Virus record (IMG/VR): IMGVR_UViG_2671180846_000009
Direction: 5' to 3' (one strand)
Source of the DNA: a virus
Taxonomy: Duplodnaviria; Heunggongvirae; Uroviricota; Caudoviricetes
Length of the DNA stretch: 5,645 nucleotides
The position numbers and the translations under genes are program-made. Of the stretch, positions 1,415 through 1,445 are shown one piece after another. Position 1 is the first letter of the stretch. Every line of letters starts with the position of its first letter. The notes under the pieces are model-generated. The model searched no databases and was not told the origin of the DNA. It was given only the letters and a program-made list of their open reading frames with translations.

Positions 1415-1445
1415 TCAGGAGGCCGCCCGAAAGGGCGGTAGTTAA
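1415..1445 (+). promoter_or_regulatory. structured translation-initiation region: AGGAGG followed by a CCGCCC-GAAA-GGGCGG hairpin (GNRA tetraloop), then ATG 1446
   Basis: Perfect 6-bp GC stem at 1423-1428/1433-1438 with a GAAA loop, lying between the SD (1417-1422) and the start codon. The linear SD-ATG distance is 23 nt and falls to about 7 nt if the hairpin folds. A near-identical copy sits at 2487-2516. Confidence 0.5.

Follow-up and report, generated by a model that had tools for sequence, protein, structure and literature searches.

How can a gene be translated from a Shine-Dalgarno (SD) sequence that lies 23 nucleotides (nt) upstream of its start codon? The question is raised by a short intergenic element in the 5,645-nt stretch of IMG/VR virus record IMGVR_UViG_2671180846_000009 (the window), which is a lambdoid prophage of Escherichia coli of the Shiga toxin (Stx) type. 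The element, a 26-nt unit composed of an SD sequence fused to a GC-rich hairpin, precedes a gene of the DUF7167 family and recurs in front of a DUF4014 gene further downstream. We propose that the unit is a portable split translation initiation region (TIR) of the type described for genes 38 and 25 of bacteriophage T4, and that it is also a recombination joint between gene cassettes. We give this reading, which draws on sequence comparison, predicted folds and analogy, a probability of roughly 55%.

Anatomy and predicted fold of the SD-hairpin unit

The unit and its immediate surroundings are composed of the following features:

1410–1412, + strand: stop codon TAA of the upstream open reading frame (ORF) of 70 amino acids (aa), read from the sequence
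1415–1440, + strand: 26-nt unit, copy 1, TC-AGGAGG-CCGCCC-GAAA-GGGCGG-TA, from the sequence and a repeat search
1417–1422, + strand: SD sequence AGGAGG, duplex with the anti-SD of −10.3 kcal/mol
1423–1428 and 1433–1438, + strand: hairpin arms CCGCCC and GGGCGG, enclosing the loop GAAA (1429–1432); a perfect stem of six G-C base pairs
1422–1439, + strand: hairpin with the basal wobble pair G1422-U1439, which is added by ViennaRNA and extends the stem to 7 bp
1439–1445, + strand: TAGTTAA between stem and ATG, read from the sequence
1440–1445, + strand: A/U-rich, SD-free spacer AGTTAA, from the sequence and an anti-SD scan
1443–1445, + strand: in-frame TAA, which closes the frame upstream of the ATG
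1446–1448, + strand: ATG, start of the DUF7167 gene
2487–2512, + strand: 26-nt unit, copy 2, a CCGCCT variant with a U-G closing pair, −12.9 kcal/mol

The gap between AGGAGG and the A of ATG 1446 is exactly 23 nt, of which the hairpin takes up 16 nt and the remainder 7 nt. The sequence-only reading, made from the letters of the window before the present analysis, had placed the SD at this distance, and its count is exact to the base. ATG 1446 is the RefSeq start of the DUF7167 protein, and both the Pfam and the PHROG profiles align from residue 1–2. At 23 nt, AGGAGG exceeds the limit of about 15 nt for the distance of an SD from an authentic start. In the anti-SD hybridization scan it is the strongest partner upstream of ATG 1446.

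The perfect CCGCCC-GAAA-GGGCGG hairpin that had been read from the intervening 16 nt is reproduced by ViennaRNA. The segment 1415–1448 folds with an energy of −15.5 kcal/mol (z = −3.5; 3 of 200 shuffled sequences are equally stable), and the energy of the copy 1 hairpin ranges from −14.4 to −15.5 kcal/mol. In contexts of 120–300 nt, the stem pairs have probabilities of 0.92–1.0, and SD bases 1417–1421 are predicted to be unpaired with a probability of 0.65–0.98. The fold that had been suggested as a check of the idea is a stable hairpin with a free SD, and it leaves exactly 7 nt between SD and ATG, where about 7 nt had been estimated. A weak A-U hairpin, UUAAAU-GCGAAA-GUUUAA (1442–1459), takes in the AUG of the DUF7167 gene, for which the predicted unpaired probability is only about 0.35–0.4.

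We propose that the GC-rich hairpin with its GAAA loop would be folded essentially always on the sense mRNA, and that the anti-SD of the 30S subunit would pair with AGGAGG exposed at the foot of the stem. Because the two ends of the stem adjoin, folding would shorten the gap between the SD helix and the start codon from 23 to about 6–7 nt. With 7 nt for copy 1 and 6 nt for copy 2, the folded spacing is within the functional range of about 5–13 nt; a spacing of 11 nt occurs only where a second SD is present. DUF7167 (copy 1) and DUF4014 (copy 2) would then be translated from their annotated ATGs. We infer that ribosomes use the distal SD across the folded hairpin, and that the hairpin is required rather than merely tolerated.

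Sites of this kind are known from phage T4, where a hairpin cuts the SD-AUG spacing of gene 38 from 22 to 5 nt and that of gene 25 from 27 to 11 nt (PMC3014915). They have been termed 'noncontiguous or split' TIRs (PMC7297116), and were established for both genes by mutagenesis, reporter fusions, and dimethyl sulfate (DMS) probing (PMC3014915, PMC7297116). The prophage unit resembles the gene 38 site in that the SD lies about 22–23 nt from the AUG with a stable hairpin in the gap, and the folded distance is 5 nt in T4 and 7 nt in the prophage. The two elements have no sequence relationship. The T4 element, whose function was examined with mutants, is peculiar to a single gene in a lytic phage, whereas the prophage unit is a 26-nt cassette of several unrelated genes in temperate lambdoid prophages, recognized from sequence and predicted fold. 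The gene 25 site, at the 26–25 junction (Nivinskas 1999; Malys and Nivinskas 2009), is intercistronic and directly follows an upstream stop codon, as does copy 1, and in both cases the hairpin is conserved among close relatives only. It is, however, backed by reporter and DMS evidence and by a survey of 38 phages, whereas covariation in the prophage unit is non-significant. The stem of the prophage unit is shorter than that of gene 25, consists entirely of G-C pairs, and carries a GAAA loop.

Gene contexts, natural variation and spread of the unit

The distance of the unit from the start codon is short irrespective of the gene that follows. In lambdoid contexts with a downstream gene, the unit lies 6–11 nt before the start codon in 128 instances, and the genes belong to at least five unrelated families. 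The stem is separated from the start by 7 nt in the DUF7167 family, 6 nt in DUF4014 (ATG 2517 behind copy 2), 8–9 nt in the MTELTKEQL family, 9 nt in the MQEIKENI family, and 11 nt in the MGITKERL family. The spacers that follow the hairpin are A/U-rich and SD-free (UAGUUAA, UAAGAA, UAAUGAAAA, UAACAAAUA, and others). The sole exception is the 11-nt spacer of the MGITKERL family, which contains its own GGAG after the hairpin and appears to be an exception that fits the rule.

Homologues that lack the hairpin provide natural controls. Hairpin-less DUF4014 genes begin as AAAGGAGAGTGAT-ATG/GTG or AATGGGAGTGAT-ATG, and hairpin-less MTELTKEQL genes as TAAGGAAAACTGAA-ATG, in each case at the same start codon as the genes behind the unit. 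All these copies have a canonical SD 4–8 nt upstream of the start. In 3.1 Mb of related loci, the distal SD and the hairpin occur only together, and no precise natural deletion of the hairpin was seen among them. An insertion sequence element is located inside the hairpin in one lineage (three contexts; L161 at about 150–200, upstream of its DUF7167 gene), where it splits the SD from the gene. The insertion is flanked by an apparent 10-bp target duplication, GCCCGAAAGG, and has the inverted ends CTGAGGAATTCCC and GGGGATCCCTCAG.

The annotation of DUF7167 genes bears on the same point. Many database entries homologous to 1446–1628 (proteins P0002–P0004 and P0009) are mis-extended upstream to 84–93 aa, probably because gene callers expect a proximal SD. 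Where no in-frame TAA stands before the ATG, the ORF was carried upstream through the module that surrounds the unit (MNFIKSLTGGISAPSEHQEAARKGGSE-MRKFK..), and the large cluster P0003 has Arg in place of the canonical Met. Such mis-extended calls, with products of 87–93 aa, are as expected for genes without an SD at canonical spacing, and we count them in favor of the split TIR.

The natural variation of the stem was assessed in contexts sampled independently of the hairpin, with the end of the 70-aa ORF, the 5' part of the module, or the downstream genes used as anchors. This sample comprises 173 distinct contexts with 35 haplotypes, the canonical one accounting for 50%; a broader sample that includes loci found by the exact motif contains 185 contexts and 38 haplotypes. 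In the 173 contexts, C>T changes in the stem were found in 34, at five of the six C positions, and all of them keep a G-U pair on the + strand RNA. Changes of G>A occur in 8 contexts and transversions in 5. The changes kept as G-U on the sense strand would be A-C mismatches on the antisense strand, and the asymmetry is better explained by selection on the + strand RNA than by a DNA palindrome or by an antisense RNA. One haplotype is compensatory (CCACCC/GGGTGG, with an A-U pair), and the basal G-U pair is replaced by A-U in 17 contexts and by G-C in 4. The loop is mostly GAAA, with the variants GGCA (5 contexts), GGAA, GAGA, UAAA, and AAAA, so that a strict GNRA requirement is unsupported.

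The repeat within the window introduces the wider setting of the unit. A 24-mer is present twice, at 1417–1440 and 2489–2512, and has 0 matches in 200 shuffled sequences. The common unit of the two copies, TCAGGAGG-hairpin-TA, is 26 nt long and 96% identical, and the copies form direct repeats 1072 bp apart. The SD-hairpin unit usually forms the 3'-terminal part of a conserved intergenic module, which is about 95 nt long and of which a full copy occupies 2422–2516. The arrangement of module and genes is as follows:

1142–1199, + strand: 5' half of the module (CTGAATAA..AATCCTGAACTGGAGG), which aligns with 2422–2470
1200–1412, + strand: ORF of 70 aa from the function-unknown family phrog_4659; it ends 4 nt upstream of the cassette's SD
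1446–1628, + strand: DUF7167 gene of 60 aa behind copy 1; Pfam PF23768 (E = 7.9e-15), phrog_1997 (1–57 of 57), RefSeq WP_001224662
2422–2486, + strand: 5' part of the module upstream of copy 2, which begins within the last codons of an Ead/Ea22-like gene
2517–2735, + strand: DUF4014 gene of 72 aa behind copy 2; Pfam PF13198 (E = 5.7e-22, 1–71 of 72), with the RefSeq start

At copy 1, the 70-aa ORF lies between the 5' half of the module and the SD-hairpin unit, and the same order of 70-aa ORF and cassette is found in 68 distinct contexts on other contigs. The 70-aa ORF has an ordinary SD, the GGAGG of the module at 1189–1193, which pairs with the anti-SD at −10.6 kcal/mol and lies 4–5 nt from ATG 1200 in the anti-SD scan. 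The module starts inside the last codons of at least six different upstream genes (CTGAATAATTAAATTYAG...AATCCTTAACCGGAGGGATTTCTGCACCCTCAGAACATC; ..CTGAATAA), and the flanking sequence switches abruptly just beyond TCAGGAGG...GGGCGGTA. At the DNA level, the unit, mostly within the ~95-nt module, would be a joint for the exchange of accessory cassettes among E. coli lambdoid prophages. Such a role is compatible with a split TIR, since the flanking sequence changes abruptly on either side of the unit.

The exact 22-mer is present in at least 120 IMG/VR contigs among the matches listed. A 37-nt core occurs in 2653 of 5426 complete E. coli genomes, with 4893 occurrences in all and a maximum of nine in one genome. 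Only 21 deposited phage genomes carry the unit, namely ArgO145-like Stx2a phages, mEp460, Rac-like phages, and induced E. coli phages; the records listed contain neither lambda nor P22 nor HK97. A scan of one genome per species, restricted to stems of G-C pairs, returned only Shigella flexneri and one contig of a metagenome-assembled genome, which is probably a contaminant. The sequence-only reading had treated the element as a feature of one small gene. The unit does precede the DUF7167 gene, but it is a widespread portable cassette that usually resides in the ~95-nt module. The deposited genome PP818812.1, 'Actinobacillus phage vB_Apl-pPE4', contains the present E. coli-type region at about 92–95% identity, for which a broader host range or a misattributed host is possible.

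Points against a split site and competing explanations

The T4 gene 38/25 mechanism that the sequence-only reading had suggested is favored by the anatomy, the co-inheritance of SD and hairpin, the portability of the unit, the hairpin-less controls, and the wobble bias, but several observations weigh against it. The search for covariation in related prophages, which had been proposed as a check, gave a divided result: 95.4% of the alignment cells are paired and one pair is compensatory, but 120 of 500 shuffles of the 37 near-identical, non-independent haplotypes are as good, and the covariation is not significant. Five pairs vary on one side, mostly to G-U, and one pair has a double change. 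There are no usable distant homologues, as the relatives of DUF7167 are all from E. coli and the best 80 DUF7167 loci encode 100% identical proteins, so that only variation within E. coli can be used for covariation. The asymmetry of 34 versus 8 stem changes is only suggestive, because the contexts are phylogenetically non-independent. Variants that break a pair do occur (G3>A alone, C6>A, and G1'>T), and the downstream DUF7167 ORFs are intact in five of the five contexts with a disrupted stem, so that loss of the hairpin shows no association with decay of the gene behind it. A few contexts retain the hairpin with no start codon after it (L073, L305, and L267; GGGCGG followed by CTGTTCC.. or CGGTTCC..); there, the hairpin has a G-C basal pair and is followed by an AT-rich segment that resembles the terminal part of a module in the opposite orientation. 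In copy 2, the upstream module is predicted to pair, through CCUGA (2421–2425) or CCUC, with the first half of the SD, which is unpaired with a probability of only 0.06–0.26. The literature searched by sequence and by topic contains no description of the unit or of split ribosome-binding sites in lambdoid phages. Finally, the 3' arm of the stem, AGGGCGGU, is itself SD-like: it pairs with the 3' end of 16S rRNA at −7.1 kcal/mol, on par with the SDs of neighboring genes (−6.0 and −6.4 kcal/mol), and lies 5–6 nt from the ATG.

An SD-like 3' arm at canonical spacing means that a masked proximal SD predicts the same conserved distance between stem and ATG as a split site does, and the observed 6–9 nt fit it equally well. 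The working SD would then be the 3' arm, (A)GGGCGGU, sequestered by the anti-SD-like CCGCCC, with AGGAGG as a standby or loading site and the hairpin as a repressor or a translational-coupling device. The downstream gene would be silent unless the stem was opened, which in copy 1 could be done by a ribosome terminating at TAA 1410–1412. In contexts of the copy 1 type, the stop of the 70-aa ORF is indeed just 10 nt before the stem. Hairpins that sequester an SD are familiar from translational coupling of the MS2 coat-replicase type and from the standby-site model of de Smit and van Duin. The prophage unit shares with them a G-rich, SD-like 3' arm paired to a C-rich 5' arm near the AUG, and a single-stranded landing site beside the stem. 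There, however, the only SD is in the stem, whereas the prophage unit has a stronger, perfect SD outside, and the sequestered one is mismatched in its center: the central C of GGCGG mismatches the anti-SD and is never A in any variant. Opening the hairpin (−12 to −15 kcal/mol, pair probability of about 1) would take roughly double the energy that the imperfect SD duplex gives back. Module contexts, which are the commoner ones, have their upstream stop about 60 nt away, too far for any ribosome there to open the stem, and the perfect exposed AGGAGG is conserved beside the stem and never lost on its own. Because of the cost of stem opening, the distant stop in most contexts, and the constant fusion of a perfect SD to the stem, we rank the masked SD below the split TIR and regard it as quite unlikely. 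A broader idea takes the unit for a universal plug-in adaptor, at once a joint and a common translational operator, which would make the genes behind it, up to nine per genome in half of the E. coli strains, one post-transcriptional regulon. Control would be exerted by a phage or host RNA-binding factor that recognizes the hairpin, or by module pairings that occlude the SD. Within the module there are a CTGAAT..ATTCAG inverted repeat and a GGAGGG that can pair with either AAUCCUU or CCCUC, but not with both, and the pairing of the copy 2 SD with the module hints at regulated SD access in the modeled folds; we nevertheless hold a common regulon to be rather improbable.

The hairpin could instead protect the polycistronic early mRNA, either by blocking 3' exonucleases that would degrade the upstream cistron or, once RNase E has cut within the AU-rich module, as a cap-like stem at the 5' end; or it could insulate the SD from variable upstream sequence, with translation across it merely tolerated. 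The great stability of the C(GAAA)G hairpin, the lack of a U-tract, and the AU-rich intergenic module around it would suit such roles, as would retention of the hairpin in the few contexts without a start codon (such as GGGCGG followed by CTGTTCC beside a convergent segment) and a loop that is not strictly GNRA. They leave unexplained the fusion of the SD to the foot of the stem, the SD-free spacer, and the distance of 6–9 nt across unrelated genes, and the unit matches no Rfam family; we consider a function in stability, processing, or insulation unlikely. A purely DNA-level explanation, in which the palindrome and module are a joint for homologous or illegitimate recombination and the RNA structure has no role, would account for upstream flanks of two or more kinds (the module in some contexts, the end of the 70-aa ORF in others), for the downstream flanks of at least five families as well as non-coding or convergent segments, and for the direct copies in the window and the up to nine copies per genome. 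Juhala et al. (2000) and Clark et al. (2001) reportedly described conserved boundary or 'linker' sequences at lambdoid mosaic joints, which are said to be recombination joints without RNA structure or an SD-hairpin-AUG architecture. Like the unit, they are short conserved intergenic sequences between unrelated gene modules in different phages. The strand asymmetry of the stem changes, with C>T tolerated and G>A rare, is expected of pairing in a sense RNA and not of a DNA palindrome, and the position of the unit relative to start codons is too regular, which makes recombination as the sole function very unlikely. In its short GC stem and GNRA-type loop, the hairpin is similar to lambda boxB and to other operators bound by proteins, and the unit might be bound by an RNA-binding protein of the phage or the host, such as a translational repressor or an N-like arginine-rich peptide recognizing a boxB-like fold, placing the cassette genes under common control. 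The presence of the same unit before many accessory genes, and of the GAAA loop in the great majority of copies, would agree with this. The loop is, however, a tetraloop and not the boxB pentaloop, there is no boxA nearby, and the copies are multiple and located mid-operon instead of there being one promoter-proximal copy. Loops of the GGCA type are established in several contexts, and no candidate binding protein was identified; a protein operator appears extremely improbable.

Other known elements were considered and rejected. A lambda nut site has a boxB with a 5-nt GNRNA loop, a boxA similar to CGCTCTTA, and a single promoter-proximal copy. The unit has in common with it the short GC stem, the GNRA-type fold, and the location in a lambdoid early operon, but its loop is 4 nt long, neither copy has a boxA-like match nearby, and the two copies, separated by 1 kb, stand directly before start codons several kb inside the operon. 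An intrinsic terminator is contradicted by the sequence UAGUUAAAUG after the stem, which contains no U-tract, and a terminator scan did not call the hairpin on the + strand. A search with cmscan for Rfam families, including the prophage small RNAs AgvB and AsxR, returned at E values of up to 1 only an irrelevant microRNA match elsewhere in the window, and the Pas small RNAs are found near late genes, not at this locus. An RNase III site requires about two helical turns, or roughly 20 bp, of double-stranded RNA, and the stem has only 6–7 bp. Bypassing, frameshifting, or readthrough from the 70-aa ORF was rejected, as the sequence offers neither a slippery site nor a take-off codon with a matching landing codon, and ATG 1446 is directly preceded by an in-frame TAA. 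A leader peptide running through the module would have no canonical start codon, and the frame relations vary between contexts.

One further match to the 22-mer, CAGGAGGCCGCCCGAAAGGGCGG, lies in a P2-like phage (L038 11396–11500), where it encodes QEAARKGG early in the terminase small-subunit gene. Klebsiella P2-like homologues have GCCGCCC-GGCA/GACA-GGGCGGC at the same place (L432 403–470; L433 364–435). Outside the 22-mer, the MAFFT alignment of the whole module to the terminase gene is no better than that of shuffled sequences (p = 0.12–0.96). The match is part of a coding sequence (..AQEAARKGGN..) and was rejected as a sixth gene context or as the source of the module; we treat it as a coincidence of GCC and GGC codons.

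Genomic setting and meaning of the unit

The region matches the early-left region of the Stx2a phage ArgO145 and a nin-like region of an E. coli O26 prophage with 100% identity, and the annotated genes around both copies are all on the + strand. Two Ead/Ea22-like genes, at 354–815 and 1794–2429, have about 15 N-terminal residues in common (MREVNYEALREAAQNY and MSEIDYQALREAAEKA). Together with the repeated module, the common N-termini suggest a tandem duplication or exchange of cassettes in the region. A ParE/RelE-type toxin and a ParD antitoxin are encoded on the − strand at 3648–4273, between rightward accessory genes, according to the RefSeq annotation of an identical prophage. The window contains two gaps of 50 N, at 4639–4688 and 4976–5025. 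The second is bordered by identical 47-mers (4929–4975 and 5026–5072), which suggest unmerged overlapping contig ends inside a DUF968 gene.

The mechanism proposed here has precedent; the new aspect is a portable 26-nt cassette at mosaic joints in about half of the complete E. coli genomes. If confirmed, the unit would be the first split ribosome-binding site outside T4-like phages, as far as the searchable literature shows, and the first to act as a portable module rather than as the peculiarity of one gene. It often occurs several times per genome, including those of Stx-converting phages, and bears on the expression of prophage accessory genes. It also bears on gene calling, as in the case of the DUF7167 starts, and on models of ribosome-binding site strength, which penalize a long SD-AUG spacing and ignore intervening hairpins. 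The unit is a compact natural part for asking how a helix that separates the SD from the P site is fitted in on the platform of the 30S subunit.

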